A stretch of DNA of 42,823 nucleotides, from IMG/VR virus record IMGVR_UViG_3300045043_000023, positions 1-42,823 of that record. One strand, written 5' to 3'. The DNA is from a virus. Positions 7,994 through 42,823 of the stretch are shown here, in pieces. The notes under the pieces were generated by a model that was given only the letters and a program-made list of their open reading frames with translations, ran no database searches and was not told the origin of the DNA. The translations under genes and the position numbers were made by a program. Within the stretch, counting starts at the first letter, position 1. Every line of letters starts with the position of its first letter.

Positions 7994-7996
7994 GCC

Positions 7997-10114: not shown

Positions 10115-10121
10115 GGCTCAC

Positions 10122-10316
10122 ATGATCGACGCGCAGACAGCCATCGCCGTCACCCTGACCGCCGAACGCTGGCAGCAGGTGCTGGGCATTCTTGGCGAGG
10201 CAGCGATCCCGCATCGCGTGTCGGATCCGCTGATCCGCGAGATACATCAGCAGTGCCTCGCTGCGGATCGGCCCAACGTGGCGCAACTGCGCGAGGTGGA
10301 TGATGTCGCCTCCTGA
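10122..10316 (+). CDS. Hypothetical small protein between the two fibre genes (possible fibre chaperone)
   Basis: ATG at 10122 with GAGG 5 nt upstream, 64 aa. The function is guessed from position only. Confidence 0.45.
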   Translation: MIDAQTAIAVTLTAERWQQVLGILGEAAIPHRVSDPLIREIHQQCLAADRPNVAQLREVDDVAS

Positions 10317-15992: not shown

Positions 15993-17459
15993 ATGTCCGA
16001 CACGCTCGACGCACTGAAGACGGCGCTGGCTCCGAAGCAGGGGATGAAGCGCATCCCGTTTCCGCTGGAGAGCTACGAGCATCCGTCATTGCCGTTGGTG
16101 TCTAAGCGCCTCGTGAATTTGATGGCTGAGAAGCAGCCGGCCGATGCGCGGACGACCGCAGCGCTGGTCTCGACGCCGGGGCTGGTGGACTACCTGTCGG
16201 TGGGCACCGGGCCGATACGGGCGTTGAACGACGACCAGCCGGGCGTTGTGTATTTAGTGTCTGGCACGAAGTTTTACCGCATTTCGTTCCCGACCGGCGG
16301 AGCGCCTAGCGTCGAGATGCTGGCGGACGTTGGCACCGCAGACGCCGGCACATCGCCGTGGAACAGCTTTGTCACGATCGCCGCCGGGCCTACCGCAGCG
16401 GTCGTGTGCGTCGCGCCGCGTGCCTATACCTGCAAGCACTTACCCGGCGAGCCGTTGAACCAGATCACGGACCCCGACTTTCCTGGCGCCACGTCGGTGA
16501 CATACGTTGACGGGTATTTCGCGTTCTCGTCGCTCGGCGACACGGCGCAGTGGTTCGTCTCCCGTGTGCTCGATCCGCTTTCGTACGATGCGCTCGACTT
16601 CGCGTTCTCCGACGCGCTGCCGAACATCATCCGCCGGGTGATCACCCATCGCGGTCAGGTCTGGACCGTTGGCGAGGCCGGCTTTGAGGTCTGGTATGAC
16701 AGCGGCAATGCCGACTTTCCGTTTCGCCGGGCCAGTGGTGGCATCATCGATATCGGCACCGGCTCGCCGCAGGCAGTCTGTCGCGCCGAGGAGAGCGTGT
16801 GGTGGGTGGGCCTCGACGGGGTGGTCTATGGCTCGAACGGCTACAAGGCGACGCGGGTTTCGACGCACGCGATCGAGGCGATCATCGGTGACAACTCGGT
16901 CGCCCTGACCGCGCTCACGCATCCCTACCGGGGCCATTGGTTCTACTGCCTGACGACGCTGGATCAGCGGACGCTGGTTTACGACATAACGGGCGGCGTG
17001 TGGCACGAGCGATCGACCAGCACGGACGGCACGCTGCCGTGGCGGGCTGCTTCGGCGGCGGTGGAGAACAACTCGCTGCATCTGTACGGCGATCGGTCGT
17101 CGGGGCAGCTCTATACGCTCGGCATGCAGGCGACTGACGCGGGGGTTGCCGTGCTGCGTCAGGCGACATTGCCGCCGCTGTGGGCCGAGACGCGACGGGC
17201 GTTCTGTGCGCGGGTCGAGGTGGAGATGGAGGTCGGTGGTGCGTCCACGCCTGGCAACCTGCTGCTGGAGTGGTCGGACGATGGCAGCCGGACGTGGGCG
17301 GCGGGGCGGACTATGTCGTCCGGTGCGTCGGATGATCTGCGACACCGGGTTTACACCACGCGGCTGGGTTCGTTCAGGCAGCGCACGTTTCGGCTCAGTA
17401 GCCACGGGCTTACCAGGCTGTATGCCGTGGACGCAGACATCCAGCCAGGGGCGCACTGA
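15993..17459 (+). CDS. Tail hub protein, P22 gp10-like
   Basis: 488 aa. Several blocks align by eye with P22 gp10 as I recall it (WFVSRVLDP..; TLVYDITGGVWHE; LLLEWSDDGSRTW...RLGSFRQRTFRL). Confidence 0.7.
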   Translation: MSDTLDALKTALAPKQGMKRIPFPLESYEHPSLPLVSKRLVNLMAEKQPADARTTAALVSTPGLVDYLSVGTGPIRALNDDQPGVVYLVSGTKFYRISFPTGGAPSVEMLADVGTADAGTSPWNSFVTIAAGPTAAVVCVAPRAYTCKHLPGEPLNQITDPDFPGATSVTYVDGYFAFSSLGDTAQWFVSRVLDPLSYDALDFAFSDALPNIIRRVITHRGQVWTVGEAGFEVWYDSGNADFPFRRASGGIIDIGTGSPQAVCRAEESVWWVGLDGVVYGSNGYKATRVSTHAIEAIIGDNSVALTALTHPYRGHWFYCLTTLDQRTLVYDITGGVWHERSTSTDGTLPWRAASAAVENNSLHLYGDRSSGQLYTLGMQATDAGVAVLRQATLPPLWAETRRAFCARVEVEMEVGGASTPGNLLLEWSDDGSRTWAAGRTMSSGASDDLRHRVYTTRLGSFRQRTFRLSSHGLTRLYAVDADIQPGAH

Positions 17460-17977
17460 TGCCGGCTAACCCGCGCAGCCTGGAGCCGCCGTTCTACGAT
17501 CCGGTGTTGTCGGAGCATAAGGACGGGCAACAGTTCAGCCACGCCTGGACGGACTATCAGCAGCGGGTGGCCGACAAGCTGCAGGTGCTGGACCAGGGCG
17601 TGGTGGACGGCTCTGATGCGGAGTCCGGCGATGTGGGTGAATACCTCACCGCGAGCGGCAGTGTGGGCATGCCGGCCAATGCCGTGACGACGGTGGCAAC
17701 GCTGACGCTGACGCCAGGAGACTGGGATGTGAGCGGCGGCGTGACGTTTGCCATTACCGCAGCGGCATCGACGCGCTACGGCGTGGGCATCGACGGCGTG
17801 CTGACCAACGAGATGGTGGCGACGATCCCGACCGGCAGCGGCACCTGGCGGCTGGCTGCGGCTCCGGTGCGGCGCAATGTCAGTGTCGGCACGGTGGTGA
17901 CGCTCAGTGCCCTGGCCGGGTTCAGTTCGGGGTCGGTGGCGGCGAGCGGCGTGATATCGGCGCGTAGGATGCGGTGA
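17459..17977 (+). CDS. Hypothetical tail protein (sits where P22 has its needle/plug gene)
   Basis: 172 aa, start overlaps the upstream stop. No recognisable motif. Confidence 0.5.
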   Translation: MPANPRSLEPPFYDPVLSEHKDGQQFSHAWTDYQQRVADKLQVLDQGVVDGSDAESGDVGEYLTASGSVGMPANAVTTVATLTLTPGDWDVSGGVTFAITAAASTRYGVGIDGVLTNEMVATIPTGSGTWRLAAAPVRRNVSVGTVVTLSALAGFSSGSVAASGVISARRMR

Positions 17978-19017
17978 CGTTCATTATCTTCGCGCTGCCT
18001 CGGTCGCGCACCGCGTGGACTGCCAGGTTCCTGACATACGGCGACTGGCAATGTGGCCATGATGAGATCAAGCACTGCCGATCGCTAGACGATATCGCGT
18101 CGTGGATAGGCCAGCCCTGCACCGGGACGGTTGAGACGGCTGCCGCGCCCTTCTGGCGTATGCTGGGGCGGTTCGGCGATGTCAGGGTGGCGACAGTGCG
18201 ACGGCCTGTCGCGGACGTTGTGGCGAGCCTCCAGGCGGTCGCACCAGGGGCGTTCGATACCGACGTGACGACGGCGGCGATGATGCGGATCGACCGCAAG
18301 CTGGATCAGATCGAACGACGGCTGCCGGACGTGCTCTCGGTGCGGTTCGAGGATCTGGCGACCGAGGACGGATGCCGTCGCCTGTGGCAGCACTGCCTGC
18401 CGTATCCGTTCGATGCCCGCTGGCACGCGATGCTGGATGGCGTGAACATCCAGGACAATCTCGGCCTGACCATCCGCTACTACCATGCGCACGCACCGCA
18501 ACTGAAGAAACTAGCCGGGCTGGCCGCGCACCGGATACGCGCCGACATGCGGCCGACCGAGCGCGAGTTCGACGGCATGACGTTTCACGTGGAACCGTTC
18601 GCCGACTTCGTGCGCGATGCTGAGACGCTGATTACGGATCACGCTGCACTGGTCGGACGTAAGGCGGGGCTGGATTTCAATGTGCCGCTGTTCCAGGGGT
18701 TGGACGATATCGGCGCTCTGCAGGTTATGACGGCGCGGTCCAACGGACGTTGCTTCGGGTATCTGGTGTCGATTGTCGCGCCATCGCTTGACGGGCCGGA
18801 CATCAGGGAAGGGCACCACACGATGTTCTACACGGCACCCGAGGTGCGCGGGTTGGGCGTGCGACTGCTGATGCGCGCCAACGATGCGCTGCGTGAGCGT
18901 GGCGTGCAGCAGATCATCATGCGGGCTGGTGTGGTCGGTTCAGGGCCAACGCTGGGCGCCGTGTATCGTCGGCTCGGCGCGACCGAGTTCGGACAACTTT
19001 ATCGTCTGGAGGCTTAG
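17974..19017 (+). CDS. Sulfotransferase-like / GNAT acetyltransferase fusion protein
   Basis: N-terminus FALPRSRTAWTARFL matches the PAPS 5'-phosphosulfate loop (PRSGTT). VRRPVADVVAS matches the 3'-phosphate RxPxDxxxS motif. C-terminus EVRGLGVRLLMRANDALRERGVQQI is GNAT motif A. Confidence 0.6.
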   Translation: MTFIIFALPRSRTAWTARFLTYGDWQCGHDEIKHCRSLDDIASWIGQPCTGTVETAAAPFWRMLGRFGDVRVATVRRPVADVVASLQAVAPGAFDTDVTTAAMMRIDRKLDQIERRLPDVLSVRFEDLATEDGCRRLWQHCLPYPFDARWHAMLDGVNIQDNLGLTIRYYHAHAPQLKKLAGLAAHRIRADMRPTEREFDGMTFHVEPFADFVRDAETLITDHAALVGRKAGLDFNVPLFQGLDDIGALQVMTARSNGRCFGYLVSIVAPSLDGPDIREGHHTMFYTAPEVRGLGVRLLMRANDALRERGVQQIIMRAGVVGSGPTLGAVYRRLGATEFGQLYRLEA

Positions 19018-19701
19018 ATGGGCATCGGTGCGGCAGGGATTGCGGCAATCGGCGCTGGGGTGTCTGCGGCGTCCGGCATTGCCGGCGGCATCATGCAGTC
19101 GAACACGGCTGCGAAGGGCCAGGCGGCAGCGCGGGCGCAGTTCGAGCAGCAGCGCAATGACCTCGGGCCGTATCGTGAGGCAGGGCTAGGCTCGATCCAG
19201 GCGCAGCAGGACTTGCTCGGGTTGAACGGTCAGCCGGCAGCCGATGCGGCTATGCTGCAGTATCAGCAATCACCCGGCTATGCCTGGCAGATGGACGAGG
19301 GACTGCGGGCGGTTGACGCAGGAGCAGCGGCTAAGGGGATGTTGCGTTCAGGTGCTACGCTGAAGGCCGAGCAGACGTTCGGGCAGGGATTGGCCGATAC
19401 GGATTTCGGGCAGTACTACACCAGGCTTCACGGATTATCGACGCTCGGTGAGAGTGCTGCAGCGGGCGCTCCTGTGGCGCAGGCGGCCGGCGTCGAGACG
19501 GGCGGGGCCAATGCCCAGAACTCTATCTACGGCAACACCGCATCTGCGCTCGGTGGCACCGCCAACATGCTGCTCAACAATAAGGGTTTTCAGGACTGGC
19601 TAGGCGGTGGAGTTAGCCCATCGACTGTGTCGAACAATGCGCTCTATCAACAGGGTGCGTTCGCGGCGGCCGGGCCTGGTGCTTATGGGCCATTCCAATG
19701 A
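19018..19701 (+). CDS. Internal virion / ejection protein A (putative)
   Basis: Gly/Ala-rich hydrophobic N-terminus MGIGAAGIAAIGAGVSAASGIAGGI. First of three consecutive genes at the end of the virion operon. Confidence 0.55.
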   Translation: MGIGAAGIAAIGAGVSAASGIAGGIMQSNTAAKGQAAARAQFEQQRNDLGPYREAGLGSIQAQQDLLGLNGQPAADAAMLQYQQSPGYAWQMDEGLRAVDAGAAAKGMLRSGATLKAEQTFGQGLADTDFGQYYTRLHGLSTLGESAAAGAPVAQAAGVETGGANAQNSIYGNTASALGGTANMLLNNKGFQDWLGGGVSPSTVSNNALYQQGAFAAAGPGAYGPFQ

Positions 19702-24238: not shown

Positions 24239-25213
24239 TCAGTCTCCTGCGGCGAGCTTTTCCGCGCCGGTGATCTGCACCTCCTCCAGATCCTCCGAGG
24301 CGCTGGCACCGTCGTCCGGGAAGCGGGCGTAAGCGTTGGCTAGCAACTCGCTGATGCGGCGCTTGATTGCGTCCGGCGCCTCTGCCGTGGCTTTGCCTAC
24401 GGTGCGGTGGCCACCGATCTCGATCACCTCTTCCTGCGTCTGTGCGTTCGCCAGCAATGTGTCGAGGTTGCGCAGCCACTTCCCACCGTCCGGCTCATCG
24501 AGCGGGTCGGTAGCATGGGCCGCTGCTTTCTCGGCAATCCGGTCAGCGCGCTTCATGTCGCTGGCAGCGGCGCGCAGCGGTGGCGGCTCCGGATCGGCCT
24601 GCGCGTCCAGCGTGGTGCCGGTGAAATCGTCGTGCAGCGTCTTGCCTTGCATCTCCTCCATTGTGTAGCCGGAGGAGAACTCGGGAAACGCCATGCGCAA
24701 TGCCTGGGCTTCCGCGACCTTGGCGAGTTGGCCGTAAGGCCGCTTCTTCCACATCGTGTTCGGAGCTGACGTGTCACGCTTGGCGGTGGCGTAGTTCTCA
24801 ACCCATCGCTCGGTGGCAGTAAATTCGCGTGGGTGACCCTGGACGATCCGGCGCACGGTCATCCGGCACCATGCCGGGTAGGTTATCGCTGTGCCAGACA
24901 ATGTCTCCCGCACGTCAGGGCCGAACTCTGGCTCCGACTTGCCGCCATACTCACCGCTGCGTGCCGCTTTGATGCGGTAGTCTGCGATACCGGGCATCAG
25001 CACATCGCGCGTCTCGTACTGCCCGTTGGGCAGCTTTACCGACGTTGGCACGATGTAGACGGGGCGCAGCATCGGATCGAGGCCGTTGGCGCGACAGTAT
25101 GCCAGCACCAGTTCGATGCTTTCGCGTTTGGCGCCTGGATACAGGCTGTTTTCCAAGACGCGGATAACTTCGTCGGAAGAGACTGGCTCGGTGGCGACAA
25201 TGGCATTCATCAT
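24239..25213 (-). CDS. recT: RecT / Red-beta family single-strand annealing protein
   Basis: ESIELVLAYCRANGLDPMLRPVYIVP and MWKKRPYGQLAKVAEAQALRMAFPE are characteristic RecT/Bet blocks. Confidence 0.85.
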   Translation of the reverse strand: MMNAIVATEPVSSDEVIRVLENSLYPGAKRESIELVLAYCRANGLDPMLRPVYIVPTSVKLPNGQYETRDVLMPGIADYRIKAARSGEYGGKSEPEFGPDVRETLSGTAITYPAWCRMTVRRIVQGHPREFTATERWVENYATAKRDTSAPNTMWKKRPYGQLAKVAEAQALRMAFPEFSSGYTMEEMQGKTLHDDFTGTTLDAQADPEPPPLRAAASDMKRADRIAEKAAAHATDPLDEPDGGKWLRNLDTLLANAQTQEEVIEIGGHRTVGKATAEAPDAIKRRISELLANAYARFPDDGASASEDLEEVQITGAEKLAAGD

Positions 25214-25686
25214 GCGGTCCTTAGCGTAATTGTAAGATCGTCCTTGTCGGCGAGCGCGTAGCCGGGGACTTCCTCACCGCGTCGCAGGGTCTTGGCGATG
25301 AGCACCTTGTCCGGAGCACTGCGCACGAACGCCGCCGGCAGCGCCTCGTTGGTCGCCATTTCGGTCAGTTCCTGTCGCCGACTGATGGAGGCGGTGTAGA
25401 GCGGGCGTTCGCACTTCGGCATGTCCACGACCGTCAGCATGCGGCGCAGGATGCTGCGGCGGGCCTCGGCCCTGGCCTCCAGCCGCTTGATCCGTTCGCG
25501 TGCCATCTCGATCAGCCGGGTGGCGGCAACAGCCTCCTCGGCCAGGTCGTCCAGCACGGCGAAGAACCGCGTCTCGCCCTCCAGGCTGTCATGGCGCAGG
25601 CGTTCGTCTCCGTCGTCGGGCAGATCGGCGATCAGTCGCATTGCCTCGGACATCGCCTGCTCGATGCGTGCTGCGGACGGACTCAC
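25210..25686 (-). CDS. Siphovirus Gp157-like protein
   Basis: DSLEGE..coiled coil..RIKRLEARAEARRSILRRML...PDKVLIAKTLRRGEEVPGYAL matches the Gp157 family pattern. Adjacent to recT, as is usual. Confidence 0.7.
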   Translation of the reverse strand: MSPSAARIEQAMSEAMRLIADLPDDGDERLRHDSLEGETRFFAVLDDLAEEAVAATRLIEMARERIKRLEARAEARRSILRRMLTVVDMPKCERPLYTASISRRQELTEMATNEALPAAFVRSAPDKVLIAKTLRRGEEVPGYALADKDDLTITLRTA

Positions 25687-26995: not shown

Positions 26996-27394
26996 TTACC
27001 TCGGTTGGGTTCTCCCGCGATGCCTGGTCGGGATTTCCGACTGCGGCGCATGGCAGGGCTGCTCGGGACTTCCTTCGATATTCGCCGCCATGCCCAGGAG
27101 TTCCAGCAGGTTCTCCTGCTGCCTCGGCGAGAGCAGGACAAACCGGCGCAGCATCGTAATCTGCCGCGTGTCTTTCACTAGAACGCCGTCCACTCCCGGC
27201 ATATCGCGTGTAAGTGCTGCCGGGTCGACCAGAGTCACCTCGGCGATCTTGAGAATGTTGGTGGTGCCAGGGTTCTTCCGGTGGCTTTCCCACTGCCCGA
27301 CGATGCCATGGCTGACGCCTACGGCTGCGGCCAACTCTCGCTGATTGAGACCAGCAGCCTGGCGAGCCTGACGAATCCTGTCGCCGATCTTCAT
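26996..27394 (-). CDS. XRE-family HTH repressor (CI-like, no S24 peptidase domain)
   Basis: MKIGDRIRQARQAAGLNQRELAAAVGVSHGIVGQWESHRKNP is a classic XRE HTH. Divergent from a Cro-like gene. Start set at 27394. Confidence 0.8.
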   Translation of the reverse strand: MKIGDRIRQARQAAGLNQRELAAAVGVSHGIVGQWESHRKNPGTTNILKIAEVTLVDPAALTRDMPGVDGVLVKDTRQITMLRRFVLLSPRQQENLLELLGMAANIEGSPEQPCHAPQSEIPTRHRGRTQPR

Positions 27395-27490
27395 AGCCGG
27401 CAGGGTGACACTAAGTCTGTCAGTCTGGGGGAAGCAATCTAGCGTCCCAAGGGGGGTTCCCCTTTCAGCTTCCCGACGGTAAGCTATGTC
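27395..27490. promoter_or_regulatory. Divergent promoter/operator region of the repressor-Cro switch
   Basis: 96-bp intergenic region containing TGACA-N7-TGTCA (27406..27422) and AAGGGG-ggtt-CCCCTT (27449..27464). Confidence 0.6.
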
Positions 27491-27691
27491 ATGCCCGACG
27501 GTATGGCCCTGCTCCGAGCGCAACGTGGCTTGTGTGCCAAGGTCGCTCACGGCCTCGGCCTCACGCGTGCGTCAGTCGTGAAATGGCGGCAGGTGCCGGC
27601 CGAACGGGTGGTCGAGATCGAACGGATATCCGGCATTCCACGAGAGAAGCTACGGCCTGACCTGTATCGCAAATGCCTGACCGCCGCCTGA
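27491..27691 (+). CDS. Cro / YdaS-like HTH regulator
   Basis: LCAKVAHGLGLTRASVVKWRQVPAERVVEIERISGIPREKLRPDLY fits the YdaS/Cro pattern. Divergent from the repressor. Confidence 0.7.
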   Translation: MPDGMALLRAQRGLCAKVAHGLGLTRASVVKWRQVPAERVVEIERISGIPREKLRPDLYRKCLTAA

Positions 27692-33224: not shown

Positions 33225-33466
33225 CCGCCAGTTTCGACCACCTGGTCCGCCAATGCGATCCAGACTACCGCCGCGCCGAGGCCATCGCCCTCAACATCAC
33301 CGACGACCTCGACGAGCTGCACGACGACCACCAGATCGTCATCATCTCAGCCCTCGCTCACATCCTCATCGCATTCATGCGCCAATGCCCGGCGCAATAC
33401 CGCACCGCCCTCACCGACAGCCTGCTCGCCGATCTCCGCCAGCAAATCCTCGATCCCGATGCTTGA
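33221..33466 (+). CDS. Hypothetical protein
   Basis: 81 aa with overlapping start and stop. Confidence 0.55.
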   Translation: MTASFDHLVRQCDPDYRRAEAIALNITDDLDELHDDHQIVIISALAHILIAFMRQCPAQYRTALTDSLLADLRQQILDPDA

Positions 33467-34028
33467 CGGGCGTCGTCTCAGGGCGCTAGACGAGTCCCAG
33501 CCCGATGCCTTCGAGCACCTCGGGTGCGGTAGCCGTTGGGCCGTCTGCCAAACCCACCCGCAAGCCGAACGCTGGGCGTTCCTGAACCTGGAACGCCAGG
33601 GCTACACCGCGTTCCTCCCGATGCACCTGGTCCTACGACGCGATCCGGTGCTGCGTACGCTGACCCGCCGCGTCCTCGCCCCGCTCTACGTCGGCTACCT
33701 GTTCGTCCAGCCAGGCACCCACTGGGGACCAATCCAGCACAGTCGCGGCGTCTCCAAGCTGCTCATGAACGGGGAACGCCCCCAGTTGTGCTCTCCGGGC
33801 GCTGTAGAGGCGCTGGAGCGGTCAGAGGCATCCAGACGCTCACCACCAGCGGAAAGCGCCCTATACGCCCCAGGCGAGGCTGTGAGCCTCGCGACGGGTA
33901 GTCTTAGTGGCCACCATGGCGTCATCGTCCGCACCACCGCCTCACACGCCGTCGTGGCGCTGCTGCTCATGGGCCGACTGGTCGAGGCATCCGTCCGCCT
34001 CGATGCACTCGCCAGGCCCACCGCATGA
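33459..34028 (+). CDS. NusG/RfaH-family transcription antitermination factor (NGN + KOW)
   Basis: Aligns by eye with E. coli RfaH. WAVCQTHPQAERWAFLNLERQGYTAFLPM matches WYLLYCKRGQLQRAQEHLERQAVNCLAPM. APLYVGYLFVQ matches EPLFPNYLFVE. PGEAVSLATGSLSGHHGVIV matches PGDKVIITEGAFEGFQAIF. Confidence 0.8.
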   Translation: MLDGRRLRALDESQPDAFEHLGCGSRWAVCQTHPQAERWAFLNLERQGYTAFLPMHLVLRRDPVLRTLTRRVLAPLYVGYLFVQPGTHWGPIQHSRGVSKLLMNGERPQLCSPGAVEALERSEASRRSPPAESALYAPGEAVSLATGSLSGHHGVIVRTTASHAVVALLLMGRLVEASVRLDALARPTA

Positions 34029-34228
34029 AGCCGAGGCCCGACATCGTCGCCGCCATGGAACTGCTGCTAACGCCCCGACAGCGCGCGCGTATTCTGGAAC
34101 TGACATACGCCGGTCCCGACCGCGTCGCGGTGTTGCGTCAGGCGCTGAACCTCGGCCTCGATCAACTCGAACTAAAGTTCATGGATAGAGCCGAATTAGC
34201 CGCAGCTAACCCGAGGAGAGCGTCGTGA
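34025..34228 (+). CDS. Hypothetical protein
   Basis: 67 aa. The ATG overlaps the upstream stop. Confidence 0.55.
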   Translation: MKPRPDIVAAMELLLTPRQRARILELTYAGPDRVAVLRQALNLGLDQLELKFMDRAELAAANPRRAS

Positions 34229-34404
34229 ATTTGCTCTGGGTGCTCATCGTCGTGCTGCTCGTGCTGGTGCTGTTCGGCGGTGTCGCCGGCTATCGCGGCG
34301 GCTGGGGCGGACACCCATACGGCGGTTACTACAGCGGCGGCATCGGCATCGTCGGCGTCATCCTGGTGATCTTAGTGGTGCTTGTGCTCATGGGCAGACT
34401 GTGA
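34225..34404 (+). CDS. Small two-TM membrane protein (DUF3309-like; holin candidate)
   Basis: Hand-translated VNLLWVLIVVLLVLVLFGGVAGYRGGWGGHPYGGYYSGGIGIVGVILVILVVLVLMGRL (59 aa). The GTG overlaps the upstream TGA. Confidence 0.55.
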   Translation: MNLLWVLIVVLLVLVLFGGVAGYRGGWGGHPYGGYYSGGIGIVGVILVILVVLVLMGRL

Positions 34405-34407
34405 GCC

Positions 34408-34596
34408 GTGTCGCTCACCACACTCGGCGAGAAACTCATCGCAGCACTCCCGCCTGCGTTCATCGTGCTTATCTTGCTCAACTGCGGATTCATTACGTTC
34501 GCAGTCTACACCTTCAACGCTAACGTCGAGGCACGCAACGCCATGCTCAGTCGCATTATTGAGTCATGCCTCGTCAATCGGCAGTCCAAACCGTGA
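34408..34596 (+). CDS. Small membrane protein (one TM)
   Basis: 62 aa with a GTG start 4 nt after the previous stop. TM segment LIAALPPAFIVLILLNCGFITFAVYTF. Confidence 0.55.
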   Translation: MSLTTLGEKLIAALPPAFIVLILLNCGFITFAVYTFNANVEARNAMLSRIIESCLVNRQSKP

Positions 34597-34641
34597 CGCG
34601 TCTCAGTGTGTGGGATTGTCGTCTAAAATAGACAGAGTGAG

Positions 34642-34896
34642 ATGGCGCTAGGACGCAAAACTGGAGGCCGACAGCCCGGCTCGACCAACAAAGTCAGCGG
34701 CGACCTCAAGCACATGATCCTCGGTGCCTTGGCTGGTGCCGGTGGCGAAGCCTATCTGCAACGTCAAGCTGACGAAAATCCCGGCGCGTTCCTCACCCTC
34801 ATCGGCAAAGTGCTGCCCATGCAGGTCACTGGCGGCGAAGGTGGGCCAGTACGCATCGAGGTGGTAACAGGCGTGCCGCGACAGGATGACGACTGA
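34642..34896 (+). CDS. Terminase small subunit (putative)
   Basis: 84 aa with a basic N-terminus (GRKTGGRQPGSTNK). The stop overlaps the terminase large subunit start. Confidence 0.45.
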   Translation: MALGRKTGGRQPGSTNKVSGDLKHMILGALAGAGGEAYLQRQADENPGAFLTLIGKVLPMQVTGGEGGPVRIEVVTGVPRQDDD

Positions 34897-36209
34897 TGGC
34901 AAGGCGGCCTGTCGTTATCAGCTACACACCGCGCGATCAGTTCGTGCCATATCACAAACGCAAGCAGCGCTGGGCATGCATCGTCGCTCATCGTCGCGCC
35001 GGCAAAAGCGTGGCATGCGTGATGGACCTCATCGACGCAGCATTGCGCTGCAAGAAACCAAATGCACGCTTCGGTTATATCGCGCCGACATACACGCAGG
35101 CGAAGGACGTGGTCTGGTCGTACTTGAAGGAGTTCACACACGAAATACCCGGCGCTGAACTGCGCGAGTCTGATCTGTCCGTGATATTTCCAACCGGCGC
35201 ACGCGTCAGGCTCTATGGCAGCGACAATCAGGACCGGCTGCGCGGTATCTACTTTGACGGCGTGGTGATGGATGAGTTCGCCGACATGGCGCCAGGTGTG
35301 TGGTCGCATGTCGTGCGGCCAGCGCTCACCGATCGGCAGGGTTGGGCAACATTCATCGGCACACCGAAAGGCCGCAACGGGTTCTGGGATATCTACAGCA
35401 ACGCTTGCGACGATCCCGCATGGTTCACGCTCGCATTGCGTGCATCTCAGACCGGCCTGATCGCGGAGGAGGAGCTTGAGACAGCTCGCCGCGACATGAC
35501 GCCCGAAGCCTACGCCCAAGAGTTCGAGTGCAGCTTTGACGCCGCCATTCTTGGTGCTTACTTCGCCAAGGAGATCGAGGAGGCAGAGCGCACCGGGCGC
35601 ATCGGTCAGGTGCCATACGATCCAGTGCTGCCCGTCCATACCGCCTGGGATCTTGGCATCGGCGACAGCACCGCCGTCTGGTTCTTCCAGGTGTCGCTGT
35701 CCGAGGTGCGGGTGATCGATCACTACGAGGCATCAGGCCACGGTCTGCCGCACTACGCCGCCGTCCTCGCCGCCAAGCCCTACCGCTACGGCACCGACTA
35801 CCTGCCGCACGACGCAGAGGCGCGGCAGCTCGGCACCGGACGCTCGATCTGGGAGACGCTCAACGGCCTGACCGGACGTATCCCGCGCGTGCTGGCAGCG
35901 CAGAACGTGATGGACAGCATCAATGCCGCGCGCATCACACTCGCCAGCGCATGGTTCGATGCGGACAAATGCCACCACGGGCTGGAGGCGCTGCGGGCCT
36001 ACCGCACCGACTATGACGAGCGGCGCAAAGTCTTCAACGACAAACCCAGGCACGACTGGTCGAGCCACAGTGCCGATGCGTTCCGTTACCTGTCGCTAGC
36101 CTGGCGTGAGATGCAGCCGGCCAAGCCACCACCACCGCCAGTGGATACGTGGTCCAGAGCTTGGGAACGCGCATCACAGACGGATGTTGACGCCTGGAGA
36201 GTGGCGTGA
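34896..36209 (+). CDS. terL: Terminase large subunit
   Basis: Walker A AHRRAGKS, Walker B GVVMDEF, IGTPKG, and nuclease-domain motif VHTAWDLGIGDSTAVWFFQ. Confidence 0.9.
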   Translation: MARRPVVISYTPRDQFVPYHKRKQRWACIVAHRRAGKSVACVMDLIDAALRCKKPNARFGYIAPTYTQAKDVVWSYLKEFTHEIPGAELRESDLSVIFPTGARVRLYGSDNQDRLRGIYFDGVVMDEFADMAPGVWSHVVRPALTDRQGWATFIGTPKGRNGFWDIYSNACDDPAWFTLALRASQTGLIAEEELETARRDMTPEAYAQEFECSFDAAILGAYFAKEIEEAERTGRIGQVPYDPVLPVHTAWDLGIGDSTAVWFFQVSLSEVRVIDHYEASGHGLPHYAAVLAAKPYRYGTDYLPHDAEARQLGTGRSIWETLNGLTGRIPRVLAAQNVMDSINAARITLASAWFDADKCHHGLEALRAYRTDYDERRKVFNDKPRHDWSSHSADAFRYLSLAWREMQPAKPPPPPVDTWSRAWERASQTDVDAWRVA

Positions 36210-37689: not shown

Positions 37690-37983
37690 TCACGGCGCGT
37701 CTCCCTGTGTGTGCGGTTCGCGGGGCGTGGTCCAGTCGTGGCATCGAGCGCAGTAGCCATACTCAACGTCGTTCATGTTGTAGCTGACCGCGTTGCACCG
37801 GGGGCATGTGATCGAGGGCAGCAGCCATCCGCTCCCGTGACAAACCGGACAGTCATTGCCGAACGTGAAGCACGGCGCCGGTTCAGCGTAACCAGTCCCG
37901 CGACATTCGCGGCACCGCATCTTGCGGAATGGGTTCACCCGCTTCGTCTCCCTGTGTGCGGTGTATCTGAATTTATGCCGCAC
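37690..37983 (-). CDS. DnaJ-type CxxCxGxG zinc-finger protein
   Basis: CRECRGTG and CPVCHGSG, plus CPRC..CARC. 97 aa from the GTG at 37983; an alternative ATG lies at 37920. Confidence 0.6.
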   Translation of the reverse strand: MRHKFRYTAHRETKRVNPFRKMRCRECRGTGYAEPAPCFTFGNDCPVCHGSGWLLPSITCPRCNAVSYNMNDVEYGYCARCHDWTTPREPHTQGDAP

Positions 37984-38848: not shown

Positions 38849-39105
38849 CGGTGTGTCCTCGGTTTCGATGACCCCTTGTAGCGTTACGCGACGCATCGTG
38901 CAAGCGTTATTTAACGGATGAGCGGATTATTTGCGCGGTTGCATCGCCCGTTCCGAGAGCCTACCGCCGGTTAATCCAGGGTATCGGAACGGGTAAAATC
39001 CAGCACGCCGCGCGGTTATCTCTGCGGCACAGGCACAACGCCGCATTCGCTGCCAGCTATGCAGGCTGGCGCTGACAATTCCCCACCACCAGAGGACATC
39101 CCGCC

Positions 39106-39792
39106 ATGCGCGCTTTGCTGCTCGCGACCACGCTCGTCGCCCTCCCCGCGTTCGCGCACGCCGCCACCATCATCACCTACGGCCAGACCAGCGGCAGCAA
39201 CACCGTGACCGGCACCGCCAATGCTACGGGCACGCATTTCAGCGGCACCGACATCGCGGTGACCATCACTCAGATCGACGATGCCGGCACCGCCGTGCCG
39301 ACCACGGCATACCTGGATCTTGCGGCCGACAGCACCTCGGGCGCCACCGCACCGCCTGGCCTCGCCATCATCCAGCATTTCCGTGGTGCGTTCTCGATCA
39401 ATGCCGCAGCCGATAACAGCGGCACGAACTACCTGTCCGGCGCGTTCTTCGATGGCACGTTCGGGCTGCGCGGCGGCTCCGGCCTCGTGCTCACGTCGGA
39501 CGGTGTGTTCACCAGCGATGTCATCGACAACCTGGCGCCGCCGCGCAACTTCAGCATGACGTTCACCAATGTCACGCCACCGGTCAGCACCGTGGGCACG
39601 CAGGCGGCCAACAGCGCGGACTGTGCGCCGTTCTTCACCGTCGGCTGCAATGACACCGGCGCTACGTTCGGCAGCTTCACCGGCAGCGTCAGTGGCAACG
39701 CCAGTGCGGCCATCCCAGAGCCGGCCACGCTCGGTATTCTCGGCCTCGGCCTGCTCGGCATCGCCGCCGTGCGCCGCCGTCAGGGCGCGTAG
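39106..39792 (+). CDS. Secreted PEP-CTERM sorting-domain protein
   Basis: Signal peptide MRALLLATTLVALPAFAHA. C-terminus IPEPATLGILGLGLLGIAAVRRRQGA shows the PEP motif, a TM helix and an Arg cluster. Thr/Gly/Ser-rich body. Confidence 0.85.
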   Translation: MRALLLATTLVALPAFAHAATIITYGQTSGSNTVTGTANATGTHFSGTDIAVTITQIDDAGTAVPTTAYLDLAADSTSGATAPPGLAIIQHFRGAFSINAAADNSGTNYLSGAFFDGTFGLRGGSGLVLTSDGVFTSDVIDNLAPPRNFSMTFTNVTPPVSTVGTQAANSADCAPFFTVGCNDTGATFGSFTGSVSGNASAAIPEPATLGILGLGLLGIAAVRRRQGA

Positions 39793-41873
39793 TGAGCGAC
39801 AGGGCCAAACCGCCGCCATCCGATCCGCAGCTCGAACAGCGGGTCGAGGATCTTGAGCAGCGCGCCAATCAGACGGATGCGATGCTGCTTGAGCATGAGC
39901 AGGCTATCAGCGACCTGCACGCCCGCGTCACGGCGCTGGAGAACCACACCGATGCCCACGAAGACGCCATAACCGCGCTGGACGTTCGTGTGACGGCACT
40001 GGAGGACGCGGCCACCATCCCAACGCCAGAGCCGCCTGACGGCACCTGGGGAGGCGTAGCCCCACCGGTTATCGATAACACCCTGCCGACACCCGAGCCG
40101 CCTGAGCCGGCCCCAACCGATGGGATGGCCGTCGTCATCATCACCAGCCTCGGCGAGACAGCCTACGTGCAGTCCGACGCTGAGGACATGGGCGACTATG
40201 ACGACCCCGCTGGCGCGTTCCTGCAGCACTGCTGGCGTGCCCCGCGACAGGACGACGTTCTGCCTGGTCTCACGGTATGGTTCCGGACAGATGCGGACGG
40301 CGGCCATGATGAGGTGATTGTCGAACTTGGCGTGCCTCTGGTGGACACGTTGGTGCCGGCGAACATGGGCGCATACACAGCGGAAATCTGGGACACCAAC
40401 GAACTTCTGGCCACGATCGAGGTGCCGTCGCACCCTTGGTATGCGCGCTGGCGCTGGCAGTCCGCCCCGCGTCCGGTGCGCGTCACGCCGGCTGAGCTGA
40501 TCGCCAGCGGCCTCGTGCCGCATTACGACGGCGACCCGTTGGCCGACTACCTGACCGACCTGGCGCCGCAGGAATACACCGTGATGGGCTTCGCGGGCCT
40601 CGTGGATCAGATGGGCTGGACCGGCGACAGGCCCGACATTGGCCCCATGACCGGCTGGCAGGCGCAATGGCTGATCAAGGGCAACAACGCCAGCACCGTC
40701 ATCGCCCAGGGCGAGGCGTCTGGCACGATGTCGATGCACCTCCGCGATCCCGTCACCGGCTCACCGCTCGATCTCGTGGCATACGACAAGCTCAGCAATT
40801 ACCCCGGCGGCGGTGATCCGATCGTCCCGCTGGTTCCCGGCATCGTCTCCTATGACAGCGGCCACTCGCCGTCGCTCTCATACCTGCCGTGGCTGATGAC
40901 GGGTGACCCGTACTACCTCGAAGCGCTGCAGTTCCAGGCCAACCTGGAGATCATGGGTGAGCCATCCGCCTACCGCTACACCAAGGCGGGCCGCTACGGC
41001 GCATGGGCGCTGCGCAACAAGCTGTATGCCGCGTCTGCATCGCCGGTCGAGCCACCGCAATGGATCTTGCCCAGGGGCGTCTTCCACGACCACATGGAGG
41101 CGGTGCGCCAGTCCATGCTGGAGGATATGGCGAACGAGGATGACCCGATCCTGTCGGTGTTCCGCTGCCGCTCGTTCGGCGGATCACAGGGCAACGCCTG
41201 CCATCCCGCCGGCACCTACGCATCGCTCTGGCAGTGCGCGATGGAGAGCTTGATTTACGGACTGTGCGTGCAATTCGGATTCGATGAATGGCGCGAGCCG
41301 ACACGCTGGAAAGTGCATTCCGAGGTTAAACGGATCGAAGGCGTCGAATGGCCGCGCGCCACGCCAGTGCCCTATCAATGCGGCCTAGTCTATACGTGCT
41401 CGCTGATAGCGCCGATGTCGGCGACAGACACCACAATCATGGTGGATAGCTACGGCGGCGGGCCGTGGCCAGTGGCTCCGTTCAGTGCCCGCATCGACAA
41501 TGAGACGTTTACGGTGGTGGACAATTCCGACGCAGAGGCGTGGCAGGTCGAGCGCACCGCAGGCGTGGAACACCCCGCCGGGCGCGTGCTGACCGGGCCG
41601 ACGTATTTGTCGTGGACCGAGTGTGCCATGCGGATGACCGCGATGCACCCGGACGAGATACCGTTCGAGGCCGACGATCCCACGGGCATGAACGAGCTTT
41701 ACAACAGCTCCACCGGCAGCGTCGGCTATGCGCAGTATGCCCGTGCGGCGCTCGCGGTGGCGGTGCGCAACGGTGTGACCGAGGCGGTCCCGGCGTTTAG
41801 CTGGATCGATGACCAGTTCCGCCAGCACAACCGCTCGTCGTGGCACCCGGCGTGGGGCTGGTGCATCACCTAG
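39792..41873 (+). CDS. Coiled-coil fibre/needle-like protein with a large C-terminal domain (possible polysaccharide lyase or hydrolase)
   Basis: The GTG shares a base with the upstream TAG. N-terminus LEQRVEDLEQR...AITALDVRVTALE resembles P22 gp26 / fibre heptads (AITALNVRVTTAE). SYLPWLMTGDPYYLEALQFQ resembles the LTGD..Y motif of alpha/alpha-toroid lyases. Confidence 0.45.
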   Translation: MSDRAKPPPSDPQLEQRVEDLEQRANQTDAMLLEHEQAISDLHARVTALENHTDAHEDAITALDVRVTALEDAATIPTPEPPDGTWGGVAPPVIDNTLPTPEPPEPAPTDGMAVVIITSLGETAYVQSDAEDMGDYDDPAGAFLQHCWRAPRQDDVLPGLTVWFRTDADGGHDEVIVELGVPLVDTLVPANMGAYTAEIWDTNELLATIEVPSHPWYARWRWQSAPRPVRVTPAELIASGLVPHYDGDPLADYLTDLAPQEYTVMGFAGLVDQMGWTGDRPDIGPMTGWQAQWLIKGNNASTVIAQGEASGTMSMHLRDPVTGSPLDLVAYDKLSNYPGGGDPIVPLVPGIVSYDSGHSPSLSYLPWLMTGDPYYLEALQFQANLEIMGEPSAYRYTKAGRYGAWALRNKLYAASASPVEPPQWILPRGVFHDHMEAVRQSMLEDMANEDDPILSVFRCRSFGGSQGNACHPAGTYASLWQCAMESLIYGLCVQFGFDEWREPTRWKVHSEVKRIEGVEWPRATPVPYQCGLVYTCSLIAPMSATDTTIMVDSYGGGPWPVAPFSARIDNETFTVVDNSDAEAWQVERTAGVEHPAGRVLTGPTYLSWTECAMRMTAMHPDEIPFEADDPTGMNELYNSSTGSVGYAQYARAALAVAVRNGVTEAVPAFSWIDDQFRQHNRSSWHPAWGWCIT

Positions 41874-42390: not shown

Positions 42391-42451
42391 CCCGAGCCGG
42401 CGTCGGTTTCCTCCCGACGTGTAACCCGTGCGTGGCCACCGAGCACGTCGG

Positions 42452-42823
42452 CTAAAGGGATTCGGTGGCACTTTCTTTCAGCCGCGCCTGAAAAGGGCGT
42501 CTGATCTGGGGTTCGCCAATGTGGTTGCCGCCTCGTTCAATGTAGTCAGCCAAGGCACGCAGGATAGCAGGGGTGTCTCGTGTGAACCCGAGGGCGCTAT
42601 TGCATCTGTTGCAAAGCCATCCTCGGAAGTTTCCAGTTATGTGACAGTGATCGTAATATGTTTTGCACTCGATGTGGCAGATTTCACATAGAGCGGCAGG
42701 AGGAACTGCCTTGTTCCTGTTCGCTCGTCGTCGCAGGGCGATCTTGACCTTGTTCTTCTGAAACCACCGCGCTTTGTGGAGAGCCTCTCTCTCTGGGTTC
42801 TTCTTTATCCATTTGTTTCGGTA
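42452..42823 (-). CDS. Endonuclease VII-type (HNH superfamily) nuclease; its 5' end wraps to 54..25
   Basis: CEICHIECKTYYDHCHITGNFRGWLCNRCNSALG is the T4 endonuclease VII signature. The frame is open to the window edge and continues in frame to the ATG at 54, for 133 aa in total. GC is low. Confidence 0.8.
   Translation of the reverse strand, partial: YRNKWIKKNPEREALHKARWFQKNKVKIALRRRANRNKAVPPAALCEICHIECKTYYDHCHITGNFRGWLCNRCNSALGFTRDTPAILRALADYIERGGNHIGEPQIRRPFQARLKESATESL
42458..42473. repeat. Direct repeat GGATTCGGTGGCACTT (partner at 105..119)
   Basis: See 105..119. This copy overlaps the 3' end of the endonuclease gene. Confidence 0.6.
42800..42823. repeat. Terminal direct overlap (identical to 1..24)
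   Basis: Identical 24-mer. Confidence 0.9.

Follow-up and report, generated by a model that had tools for sequence, protein, structure and literature searches.

Among environmental bacteria that form flocs or biofilms, PEP-CTERM proteins and exosortases are widespread, although how they function is poorly understood. We know of no described phage example of a surface protein sorted by an exosortase. In P22-like phages the neighbours of the tailspike gene include gtrABC and oac, which bring about O-antigen conversion, and the lambda morons lom and bor are late-region genes for envelope proteins that follow the ordinary outer-membrane and lipoprotein pathways. Bacterial clusters for exopolysaccharide (EPS) production encode glycanases and lyases of their own, such as AlgL, PslG, BcsZ and PelA, while the phage depolymerases characterised so far are mostly beta-helix proteins. 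PepA-type PEP-CTERM proteins raise bound EPS and lower soluble EPS (PMC9850573), and they are described as tethering EPS to the cell (PMC9850573; PMC12188702, the latter citing Haft 2006). In phage T5, the gene for the lipoprotein Llp adjoins that for the receptor-binding protein pb5, and Llp blocks the receptor on infected cells (PMC9586334). The prophage PhiSPbeta bears SasX, a surface protein whose C-terminal signal is processed by a sorting enzyme of the host (PMC7047976). The locus described here has points of likeness to each of these systems and differs from all of them.

The window, that is the whole 42.8 kb stretch of DNA that was analysed, is the complete genome of a P22-like podovirus. 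An exact 24-bp repeat is common to both of its ends, and the genome is therefore circular. It encodes portal, coat, Hc3 and ejection proteins, RecT/Gam, replication protein O, antiterminator Q and TerL. A variable accessory island with TerL (34896-36209) on one side and portal (700-2862) on the other contains a gene for a 228-aa PEP-CTERM protein, joined end to end with one for a 693-aa protein (Table 1). The island also holds homing-endonuclease-like genes, which are a sign of a recombination-prone region. A preliminary description made from this sequence had placed the pair outside the virion operon, behind an intergenic gap of about 200 bp and divergent from small genes; this is correct, the small genes lying on the minus strand. 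Scans of simple consensus types only revealed no sigma-70 or sigma-54 consensus upstream of the pair and no terminator directly after 41873. The pair resembles lom and bor as a late-region envelope-protein locus that is present or absent among related phages, but differs in that these simple scans identified no promoter or terminator of its own. The polymorphism expected of a moron is found at this very site between closely related phages: the window has the PEP-CTERM gene with the enzyme gene, one relative (L007) has a different cargo domain with the enzyme, and others (L087, L142 and the P0067 contig) keep a PEP-CTERM gene but no enzyme gene.

Table 1. Coordinates of the gene pair and of the features within it (positions in the window).
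Feature	Position	Strand	Basis or remark
Upstream gap of the pair	38897..39105	.	209 bp; GAGGA ribosome-binding site 9 nt 5' of ATG
ORF, 228-aa PEP-CTERM protein	39106..39792	+	
Sec-type signal peptide, residues 1-19, MRALLLATTLVALPAFAHA	39106..39162	+	Read from sequence; A-H-A motif
Thr/Ala/Gly/Ser-rich cargo domain, 'win-type' PEP-CTERM family, residues 20-202	39163..39711	+	Family comparison
PEP-CTERM sorting tail IPEPATLGILGLGLLGIAAVRRRQGA and TAG stop	39712..39792	+	PF07589 and TIGR02595 above cut-offs
TAGTG stop/start overlap joining both genes	39790..39794	+	Sequence; equivalents in L007, L023, L167
ORF, 693-aa protein	39792..41873	+	
Long helix / coiled coil, residues 12-73	39825..40010	+	AlphaFold2, pLDDT 82-94
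Disordered Pro-rich linker, residues 76-108, IPTPEPPDG...PTPEPPEPAP	40017..40115	+	pLDDT < 50
Beta-sandwich domain with conserved RWRWQS motif, residues 112-223	40125..40460	+	Model and alignment
Large helical domain, residues 233-693, and stop	40488..41873	+	Domain-only model, pLDDT 93.6, pTM 0.93
LMTGDPYYLE motif, residues 368-377	40893..40922	+	D372, Y374 and E377 invariant
Small beta-barrel insert of the helical domain, residues 533-604	41388..41603	+	Model; Foldseek

The 228-aa protein is built like the cargo of exosortases (EpsH/XrtA), PepA included, with a signal peptide, a Thr/Ser/Gly/Ala-rich domain and a C-terminal tail of PEP motif, helix and basic residues. The signal peptide proposed earlier, MRALLLATTLVALPAFAHA cut before ATIITY, can be read from the sequence as a hydrophobic core between a basic n-region and an A-H-A cleavage motif, and this pattern is conserved across 26 members of the PEP-CTERM family. 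In the tail, IPEPATLGILGLGLLGIAAVRRRQGA, the PEP motif is followed by a hydrophobic helix of 16 residues (mean Kyte-Doolittle 2.2), after which comes an RRR cluster. Its assignment as a PEP-CTERM signal was upheld by two profile models, scoring 32.1 bits with PF07589 (gathering score 20.7) and 23.8 bits with TIGR02595 (curated cut-off 16). We also considered the flocculation protein PepA itself and rejected it: the match to the NF033554 equivalog model reaches 39.2 bits against a cut-off of 80 and covers residues 101-226 only. By sequence the 228-aa protein may be a distant PepA relative at most. Unlike described exosortase cargo, moreover, it is encoded by a tailed phage whose genome encodes no exosortase. 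The parallel with SasX is that of a phage-carried surface protein that would need a sorting enzyme of the host; SasX, however, uses an LPXTG signal, sortase A and Gram-positive cell-wall anchoring, as opposed to the PEP-CTERM signals and exosortases of Gram-negative EPS producers.

Members of this PEP-CTERM family are encoded on at least 88 viral contigs and at one bacterial exosortase locus, so that the family shares with known exosortase cargo the presence of bacterial homologs in exosortase/EPS loci. The bacterial homolog (P0115, 40% identical) is encoded about 8 kb from a PF09721 Exosortase_EpsH gene, in the company of genes for GT4 enzymes, an amidotransferase and FemAB-like proteins. Among phage relatives the gene occupies several slots, namely the portal/scaffold interval, a position after Q and the end of the late operon. 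PEP-CTERM cargo was absent from 50,697 deposited phage genomes, and the literature searched gave no description of it as a tailed-phage function, in agreement with the earlier remark that such a function had not been described.

In the full-length AlphaFold2 model of the 693-aa protein (pLDDT 90.9), a coiled coil and a Pro-rich linker lead to a beta-sandwich and then to a large helical domain into which a beta-barrel is inserted. The N-terminus had been taken for a trimeric coiled coil of tail-needle or fibre type. The long helix is indeed predicted with confidence, and nine members of the enzyme family match the coiled-coil family DUF7310, but the similarity to a tail needle is at the level of coiled coils only. 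When P22 gp26 was tried as a candidate, residues 18-72 alone matched its coiled-coil core (PDB E = 0.045-0.14; PHROG 1219 E = 0.004), and gene order gave no needle either: the slot after Hc3 (15993-17459) is taken by another gene (17459-17977), and the gene for the 693-aa protein is 22 kb away. The same coiled-coil N-terminus is found in both P22-like and SU10-like phages, which argues against a docking function specific to one virion lineage.

The large helical domain is probably catalytic. LMTGDPYYLE is the best-conserved stretch of the family, with D372, Y374 and E377 invariant across 62 sequences, and H358, R401 and W405 nearby are likewise invariant. The preliminary description had compared this motif with those of alpha/alpha-toroid polysaccharide lyases. 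The motif and its conservation stand; a toroid fold is weakly supported by the model, whose best long Foldseek alignments are all to (alpha/alpha)6 enzymes (8h1l, 3wiw, 5noa, 1wzz, 5h42) at weak scores (E 0.03-0.9, TM 0.15-0.35), whereas no Pfam or NCBIfam model of a glycoside hydrolase or lyase matched the 693-aa protein or 62 family members, and a PDB sequence search with the family profile gave no match. The beta-barrel insert has Foldseek matches of about 87 residues (probability 0.99-1.00) to domains from three phage proteins, namely a capsid protein (9in6), a baseplate protein (8rk3) and a depolymerase (9k4a), together with a weak SH3_10 match. In its predicted helical-barrel-like domain the protein would differ from the beta-helix depolymerases of other phages. 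The family, which EPS gene clusters and phages share, comprises about 3,180 clusters at E <= 1e-10, is without a Pfam model, and is a candidate for a new polysaccharide-degrading fold. What points to an activity on polysaccharide is genomic context only.

The chromosomal members L093 and L112 carry twin-arginine (Tat) signals and have their genes within EPS clusters that also encode Wzx, Wzy, glycosyltransferases and UDP-glucose dehydrogenase; in being exported and embedded in Wzx/Wzy-type clusters they resemble AlgL, PslG, BcsZ and PelA. At L093 the genes run from Wzx through the PEP-CTERM gene and the Tat-signal enzyme to GT4, so that the two genes are ordered and oriented as they are in the window. 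Together with the nearby exosortase EpsH of the bacterial cargo relative, these clusters give contextual support to the link to surface polysaccharide suggested earlier. Phage members have short N-terminal modules and Pro-rich linkers in place of the Tat signal, the linkers falling where that of the 693-aa protein does, and the 693-aa protein itself has no export signal. With their fibre-like N-terminal modules and late-operon-end genes, the phage members recall phage depolymerases, although neither these nor the EPS-cluster enzymes have a detectable sequence relationship or a significant fold relationship to the family. In many P22-like relatives (L029, L034, L041, L044, L051 and others) the enzyme gene follows those for the ejection proteins and closes the late operon, in the slot that the tailspike region has in P22; in the window, unlike these relatives, it is in the accessory island. 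At L109 it follows a gene for a 993-aa protein, and in the myovirus locus L001 it comes behind small ORFs where the tail module ends.

Two rival explanations are addressed by these contexts. The first is that a fragment of a bacterial EPS locus was misjoined to a phage contig, or that the pair is cellular contamination, as might be supposed from the chromosomal relatives of both genes in EPS loci. Such an artefact is extremely unlikely: the contig closes on itself and has the full phage gene set, the GC3 coding bias of the pair is that of the rest of the genome, contigs of independent origin, from other samples, have the same junctions (L007, L008, L167, P0001, P0063), and the enzyme is without the Tat signal of the chromosomal forms. 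The second rival would make the 693-aa protein a cell-wall hydrolase that acts in lysis via a holin, with the PEP-CTERM protein as an envelope-acting lysis accessory. No recognisable endolysin was found in the genome, the stretch between Q and TerS/TerL encodes nothing but small membrane proteins, and the place of the L001 homolog would also suit a lysis enzyme. We nevertheless think a lysis role very improbable given that the bacterial homologs have Tat signals and EPS biosynthesis clusters rather than cell-wall contexts around them, that the protein bears no similarity to lysozyme, amidase or transglycosylase families, and that a hydrolase-like protein is already encoded at 17974-19017. The absence of the enzyme gene from the same site in close relatives would, in addition, be unexpected for an essential lysis gene.

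The two genes of the pair are joined by a stop/start overlap. The junction reads GCG TAG TGA GCG, and one G is common to the TAG stop and the GTG start, exactly as first described. Homologs conserve the N-terminal motif DPQLEQRV, and this GTG, at 39792, is the sole in-frame start that precedes it. L007 (GTGA), L023 (TAGTG) and L167 (TGATG) have corresponding overlaps, so that an overlap is conserved in four lineages, and it is kept even where the cargo domain has been swapped; DNA identity between the window and L007 begins at 39705, in the region of the PEP-CTERM tail. Of seven partner proteins tested from other loci, six pass TIGR02595 or, in the case of the chromosomal L093 protein, PF07589. 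Where a single contig has both genes, these are usually neighbours or close to each other. With each arrangement entered once, and against a null of uniform placement that ignores hot spots for accessory genes, Fisher's test gave p = 1.6e-4 (p = 0.019 without the window's own group). Of the 12 enzyme loci with a PEP-CTERM ORF, 9 have it within 1.7 kb of the enzyme gene, and the enzyme gene lies within 3.5 kb at 11 of 80 PEP-CTERM loci.

The pairing is nonetheless a loose one, and its looseness is an argument for a different explanation: that two unrelated morons share an insertion hot spot and that their adjacency reflects a tolerated site. The PEP-CTERM gene would then encode a surface factor of benefit to the host, such as an adhesion, flocculation or matrix protein comparable to lambda Lom/Bor or prophage-borne SasX, and its neighbour an independent depolymerase or fibre. 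Each gene usually occurs without the other, the partner being absent within 10 kb at 68 of 80 and 69 of 80 loci that carry one of them, and the homing-endonuclease-like genes of the island, the other late-region slots of the PEP-CTERM gene and the close relatives that keep it without the enzyme all fit this explanation. So does the shuffling of partners, since the PEP-CTERM proteins of L051 and L153 are 98% identical and their enzymes only 49%, which excludes co-divergence. It accounts less well for the proximity of the genes when both are present, for overlaps that outlast a swap of the cargo domain and for the same gene order in a bacterial EPS locus. It must also contend with a second pairing, for in at least 10 loci members of the same PEP-CTERM family are encoded 0.35-1.8 kb downstream of a right-handed beta-helix protein, a second depolymerase-type fold that is unrelated to the first (PF13229/PF05048 in homologs of that protein). 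On balance we consider the hot-spot explanation possible but somewhat doubtful. The idea of a two-gene module put forward in the preliminary description accordingly holds in part: the pair is an accessory unit with an overlap in four lineages, but it is not obligate, its partners are shuffled and it is not co-inherited.

Our best explanation, in which we place about as much confidence as doubt, is that the pair is an accessory, moron-like module directed at the EPS layer of the host and put together from genes that once belonged to an EPS locus of the exosortase type in a host. The 693-aa protein would be a signal-less, coiled-coil (probably trimeric) version of the Tat-exported enzyme of bacterial EPS clusters. 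Its most likely task would be to depolymerise EPS, whether carried on the virion as a side fibre or set free at lysis, and by cutting the slime layer it would allow virions to reach or leave cells. The 228-aa protein, which shares its transcript with the enzyme, would leave the cytoplasm by Sec and be held in the inner membrane by its C-terminal helix until the host exosortase cleaved the PEP motif, whereupon it would be deposited in the EPS of the infected (or lysogenic) cell. Expression in a lysogen is uncertain because no integrase was found in the genome. Having no export signal, the 693-aa protein cannot reach the EPS of a living cell, so that its co-translation with an exported protein lacks an obvious rationale.

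For the phage, the most likely benefit of such a module would be to remodel or mask the EPS receptor layer that the depolymerase recognises, and hence to reduce superinfection and the wasteful adsorption of progeny. The superinfection exclusion suggested at the outset gained no backing from PADLOC-DB, whose defence and exclusion models matched neither protein nor five neighbours, and it stays an inference. As with T5 Llp and pb5 (and Cor lipoproteins beside tail-tip genes), a gene for a putative exported protein adjoins one for a depolymerase-like, fibre-like protein, but Llp, a lipoprotein, targets a receptor that is itself a protein (FhuA), whereas here the pathway would be that of the exosortase and the presumed receptor a polysaccharide layer. 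A similar analogy can be drawn with gtrABC and oac, since in a P22-like genome a gene for a putative polysaccharide-cleaving spike or fibre would again adjoin a gene altering the same surface polysaccharide. Those genes, however, encode glycosyl- and acetyltransferases that act on O-antigen and not secreted structural proteins, and the pair in the window lies between TerL and portal.

A variant of the masking proposal would turn the module towards dispersal of the matrix. In that variant the phage substrate floods the exosortase, or acts as a non-functional tether, and so disturbs the processing of the native PEP-CTERM proteins by which EPS is kept on the cell, while enzyme released at lysis degrades the polymer and progeny escape from the floc or biofilm. 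Co-translation of the two genes, the failure to find an integrase and the late-gene surroundings of the PEP-CTERM gene in many relatives, a hint of late expression at a high level, are compatible with it, as is the control that PEP-CTERM proteins exert over the balance of bound and soluble EPS (PMC9850573). Interference with the exosortase is, however, hypothetical, and the conservation of the cargo domain with presumably functional chromosomal homologs speaks for a normal rather than a poisoning role, which makes dispersal by this route improbable.

Returning to a module for the EPS layer, its recurrent pairing in many uncultured phages suggests that phages both cut and remodel the slime layer of their hosts. 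A broader and more tentative possibility is that tailed phages of EPS-producing Alphaproteobacteria routinely hijack the exosortase, with this PEP-CTERM family and depolymerases of at least two unrelated folds forming a two-part system: the depolymerases would cut the EPS receptor layer from outside, and the PEP-CTERM proteins, delivered into the slime layer, would re-tether, mask or destabilise it from inside. If so, phages would here be seen for the first time to use exosortase-dependent sorting, and a new class of exclusion or dispersal function, acting at the level of polysaccharide, would be recognised. The enzyme family may find use in biofilm dispersal or glycan analysis. Phage PEP-CTERM genes beside depolymerase-type genes offer a compact and testable handle on how PEP-CTERM proteins act in the slime layer. 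Should the link between the two genes hold, the pair would be a polysaccharide-layer counterpart both of the receptor-masking proteins encoded beside receptor-binding genes and of the prophage-borne sortase substrates of Gram-positive bacteria, and phages would be seen to manipulate the matrix of soil and sludge communities.

The tail of the 228-aa protein scores above cut-off against both PF07589 (32.1 bits; gathering score 20.7) and TIGR02595 (23.8 bits; cut-off 16), and the PEP-CTERM signal proposed in the preliminary description is therefore real. The protein begins with MRALLLATTLVALPAFAHA, followed by ATIITY, and ends in IPEPATLGILGLGLLGIAAVRRRQGA; its cargo domain is sub-threshold against the flocculation protein PepA (39 bits, 80 needed). 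The gene arrangement described earlier also holds: both ORFs lie on the plus strand, and one G is common to the TAG stop of the first and the GTG start of the second (...GCG TAG TGA GCG..., hence TAGTG). No in-frame start other than this GTG at 39792 keeps DPQLEQRV, an N-terminal motif that homologs conserve. The pair sits, as had been noted, behind its own intergenic region, a 209-bp gap, and is divergent from minus-strand small genes. One gene of that divergent operon (37690-37983, minus strand) encodes a 97-aa protein with DnaJ-type CxxCxGxG zinc-finger repeats, which scores under cut-off against PF00684 (25.8 bits). A scan prompted by the RpoN dependence of pepA found no sigma-54 promoter 5′ of the cargo gene, with genome-wide counts at chance level; a sigma-70 promoter and terminator scan gave nothing useful, and the PADLOC defence models returned no match to the pair.

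The window (63.9% G+C) carries an exact 24-bp direct repeat at its ends (1-24 and 42800-42823), which indicates that the phage genome is complete and circularly closed, at about 42.8 kb. Gene identities come from PHROG matches (see table), and the phage is a P22-like podovirus with lambdoid regulation in which the pair is located between TerL and the portal gene. Identity to its capsid protein does not exceed 42% in any of 50,697 deposited phages, against which the pair and 25 kb of the window gave no match at the DNA level, and the window contains no tRNA genes that could serve as host clues. Neither an integrase nor a recognisable endolysin was found among the window ORFs scanned, and nothing lies in the Q-to-TerL stretch (34025-34896) but a 67-aa ORF and the genes for two small membrane proteins and for an 84-aa protein that resembles TerS. 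That the 693-aa protein is itself the lysis enzyme strikes us as very improbable. Within the ejection-protein operon, a 347-aa protein (17974-19017) resembles a hydrolase in its N-terminal half (phrog_10855) and an acetyltransferase in its C-terminal half (phrog_1249), and may be an enzyme carried in the virion that modifies the envelope. A minus-strand ORF of about 130 aa spans the circular junction (approximately 42440-42823 plus the first ~50 bases past the repeat); it contains CxxC...DHCHxTGxxRGxLCxxCN, a motif typical of endonuclease VII/HNH homing nucleases, and matches PADLOC REase_II (E = 4e-7). It is thus a second homing-endonuclease-like gene besides the HNH gene, and lies next to the accessory island. 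This phage group seems rich in self-splicing or homing elements: contig P0067, from a related phage, encodes a 732-aa TerL containing an intein-splicing domain, and L021 (6219-8768) has an 849-aa version of the ~495-aa gene that adjoins the 693-aa protein's relatives (L and P numbers are handles for loci and contigs with relatives of either gene).

Features of the window, of the 693-aa protein and of a second partner protein
Feature	Position	Strand	Basis or remark
Portal	700-2862		PHROG
Major head protein	4127-5257		PHROG
HNH endonuclease	5360-6190		PHROG
Protein with tailspike-type N-terminus	14548-15987		PHROG
Head-closure Hc3	15993-17459		PHROG
Ejection protein	19018-19701		PHROG
RecT and Gam	24239-25686	minus	PHROG
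CI-type repressor	26996-27550	minus	PHROG
Methyltransferase; replication O-like protein	listed between CI-type repressor and Q-like antiterminator		PHROG
Q-like antiterminator	33459-34028		PHROG
Small membrane protein	34225-34404		weak DUF3309 match, just sub-threshold
Small membrane protein	34408-34596		
TerL	34896-36209		PHROG
228-aa PEP-CTERM ORF	39106-39792	plus	ATG start
693-aa ORF	39792-41873	plus	GTG start
Long helix	residues 12-73		AlphaFold2
Disordered Pro-rich linker	residues 76-108		AlphaFold2
Beta-sandwich	residues 112-223		AlphaFold2
Large helical domain	residues 233-693		AlphaFold2
Small beta-barrel inserted in helical domain	residues 533-604		AlphaFold2
Second partner protein	L155 7852-8931		signal-less, 360 aa, Pro-rich C-terminus

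The AlphaFold2 model of the 693-aa protein, built from a 62-sequence alignment, has a mean pLDDT of 90.9, and the domain-only model scores higher still (pLDDT 93.6, pTM 0.93). Multi-domain geometry confounded the full-length fold search, which was rerun with the C-terminal domain alone. No PDB entry matched this helical domain significantly; its long alignments were consistently to (alpha/alpha)6 carbohydrate enzymes (AGE-type epimerases, GH88, the polysaccharide lyase 5noa, GH8 and GH94), all non-significant at E = 0.03-0.9 and TM 0.15-0.35. Neither the protein nor the family profile, used to search PDB sequences, returned more than coiled-coil noise, and a Pfam scan of the protein and 62 relatives returned coiled-coil families only. 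The alpha/alpha-toroid lyase suggested earlier is therefore a plausible candidate for the helical domain, weakly indicated by these long alignments but matched neither significantly in the PDB nor by an enzyme Pfam model. The LMTGDPYYLE motif on which that suggestion drew is the most conserved stretch of the family, with D372, Y374 and E377 invariant, as are H358, R401 and W405. The inserted barrel gave high-probability matches to small domains in three phage proteins, namely a capsid protein, a baseplate protein and a depolymerase. An exhaustive profile search recovered 3,180 clusters at E <= 1e-10, which, with Pfam matches to coiled coils only, makes this a large family without a Pfam model; its source annotation offers nothing beyond 'hypothetical protein'. 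Identification of the protein as a tail needle was rejected on gene position and weak scores, since the matches are at coiled-coil level only and the needle slot after Hc3 is filled by 17459-17977. Neither of the two proteins is among the usual annotated components of phages. Protein-level searches of deposited phage genomes found no homolog of the 228-aa protein and one weak partial match to the enzyme, gp39 of EBPR siphovirus 1. In this activated-sludge phage (L196, JF412302.1), gp39 (30% identity over 17% of the query) lies directly upstream of gp40 ('glycosyl hydrolase'), both in the region 7675-12105 and between the terminase and head genes.

Bacterial loci of the enzyme family are mainly alphaproteobacterial (16/21), and include Rhodospirillaceae, Acetobacteraceae, Rhizomicrobium and Roseiterribacter. 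The two chromosomal members that we examined closely both start with twin-arginine signals (L093, SRRKLLRQGLAAGAL; L112, RRSLLLSGLALGAA) and both lie inside exopolysaccharide (EPS) clusters. Neighbours of P0051/L112 comprise an epimerase, UDP-glucose dehydrogenase, sulfotransferases, a Wzx flippase, a Wzy polymerase, a deacetylase and glycosyltransferases. The order at L093 is FemAB-like acetyltransferase, GT4, Wzx, PEP-CTERM protein (PF07589, 22.8 bits), Tat-signal enzyme, GT4 and GT4, such that a PEP-CTERM gene precedes the enzyme gene in the order and orientation of the phage pair. Elsewhere in alphaproteobacterial MAGs (L101 being binned as Flavobacteriaceae), tandem arrays of three or four PEP-CTERM genes each (L099 2789-6031, L100 2060-4914, L101 613-4709) lie 4-8 kb from chromosomal enzyme copies. 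Phage members have, in place of the export signal, a short N-terminal module (a coiled coil, YPHIIVFETAETQRLFVPAE or ITNEITLTVTG) followed by a Pro-rich linker. The enzyme gene ends the late operon in many P22-like relatives, 3′ of the ejection proteins and 5′ of RecT/Gam; in one further phage it directly precedes TerL and follows a gene for a 993-aa protein; in a myovirus it follows the baseplate genes; and in SU10-like podoviruses it stands alone, adjoining the unannotated ~495-aa gene, which is probably TerL. This is the pattern to be expected if a host periplasmic EPS glycanase or lyase had been recruited as a phage depolymerase. The coiled-coil N-terminus shared by P22-like and SU10-like phages speaks against a lineage-specific docking domain. 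The enzyme domain also forms the C-terminus of proteins of 1,100-2,200 aa (P0339, P0346, P0338, P0443), whose N-terminal parts are not decisive for virion attachment, fibronectin type III repeats being present in P0339 only.

The 228-aa protein has more than 120 relatives, and a scan of viral contigs with the family alignment found at least 88. One relative, 40% identical over 90% of the length, is encoded near Exosortase_EpsH (PF09721), another PEP-CTERM gene, GT4 enzymes, FemAB-like genes and an amidotransferase of the asparagine-synthase type, in what is a typical bacterial exosortase EPS locus; others are found in IS-rich islands or ParA/VapE-type elements. In P22-like relatives the PEP-CTERM gene occupies several slots (portal-scaffold, after Q, TerL-portal or the late-operon end) and is always co-oriented with the late genes; in this it behaves as a moron does. 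According to the literature, PEP-CTERM proteins associate with EPS, and PepA increases bound EPS and decreases soluble EPS (PMC9850573; PMC12188702). The most relevant papers on PEP-CTERM proteins and phage describe no such cargo gene in a tailed phage; for mobile elements of Dehalococcoides, a preprint mentions one conserved gene with a PEP-CTERM domain.

Several results are evidence against an obligate module. A PEP-CTERM ORF lies within 10 kb in 12/80 viral loci with the enzyme, and the enzyme within 3.5 kb in 11/80 loci of the PEP-CTERM family; at the corresponding site, close relatives (the P0067 contig, L087 and L142) have the PEP-CTERM gene but not that of the enzyme; and the partners do not covary. 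Co-divergence of the two genes as a cassette was accordingly rejected (Spearman 0.12, p = 0.54); two of the eight enzyme extractions were out of frame and were disregarded in reading the table of identities. Where a contig has both genes, they are mostly neighbours: the PEP-CTERM ORF is directly upstream of the enzyme in the window, L007, L023, L030, L039 and L167, 0.2-0.7 kb downstream in L051, L073 and L153, within 0.3-1.7 kb in L186, L084, L036 and L041, and far away only in L017, L021 and L059. Fisher tests of this adjacency against uniform placement gave p = 1.6e-11 for 15 dereplicated loci; the value was 1.6e-4 when each arrangement was counted once, and 0.019 when the window's own group was left out. 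This null is a naive one, given that accessory genes cluster. Four lineages retain the stop/start overlap, even with a different cargo domain. An assembly artefact is hardly credible. DNA identity between the window and L007 (87%) starts within the tail-coding segment (39705; L007 4541) and spans the enzyme gene, and the cargo domains 5′ of 39705 are unrelated; tail and enzyme thus form a conserved block in front of which cargo domains are exchanged, which suggests swapping by recombination at the conserved tail sequence. In at least ten P22-like relatives (L155, also L143, L154, L156, L158, L170-L173 and L194) the gene 0.35-1.8 kb upstream of the member of this PEP-CTERM family encodes a different protein, homologs of which carry PF13229 (right-handed beta-helix)/PF05048. 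The right-handed beta-helix is the classic depolymerase fold, and this protein, by its homologs, is a second depolymerase-type partner, unrelated to the enzyme. It is possible, if doubtful, that the genes are independent morons sharing an insertion hot spot; a hot spot alone hardly explains the pairing of PEP-CTERM proteins with two unrelated polysaccharide-enzyme folds.

Judged from sequence and gene context, the most likely reading of the pair is an accessory EPS module. The 693-aa protein would be a depolymerase, probably trimeric, which has no export signal and so would act either as part of the virion or once the cell has lysed. The 228-aa protein, translated from the same message, would be exported by Sec, processed by a host exosortase and delivered to the EPS layer of the infected cell. 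Because its host relatives tether EPS, the most economical benefit would be that the polysaccharide layer targeted by the phage itself is remodelled or masked, which could reduce superinfection and the loss of progeny on infected cells or debris. A role in matrix dispersal or in jamming the exosortase appears distinctly unlikely. The analysis establishes the sorting signal, the domain architecture, the genomic contexts and the repeated adjacency of the genes. The functional claim rests on context, from which we infer the activity and substrate of the enzyme, the exosortase dependence, the timing and the masking effect. O-antigen conversion genes neighbour P22-type tailspikes, and offer a parallel to the pair. 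Another is the T5 gene for Llp, which blocks FhuA and lies 'adjacent and downstream to pb5' (PMC9586334), much as the putatively exported 228-aa protein is encoded beside a putative depolymerase; SasX, which PhiSPbeta carries and a sorting enzyme of the host processes, is a further parallel (PMC7047976). By analogy, the concept fits known kinds of gene, namely envelope-protein morons, genes for receptor masking that lie next to those for receptor binding, and sortase substrates carried by prophages. The finding is real and broader than could be seen from the window alone, in that one PEP-CTERM family, spread over at least 88 viral contigs, is repeatedly found near depolymerase-type genes.
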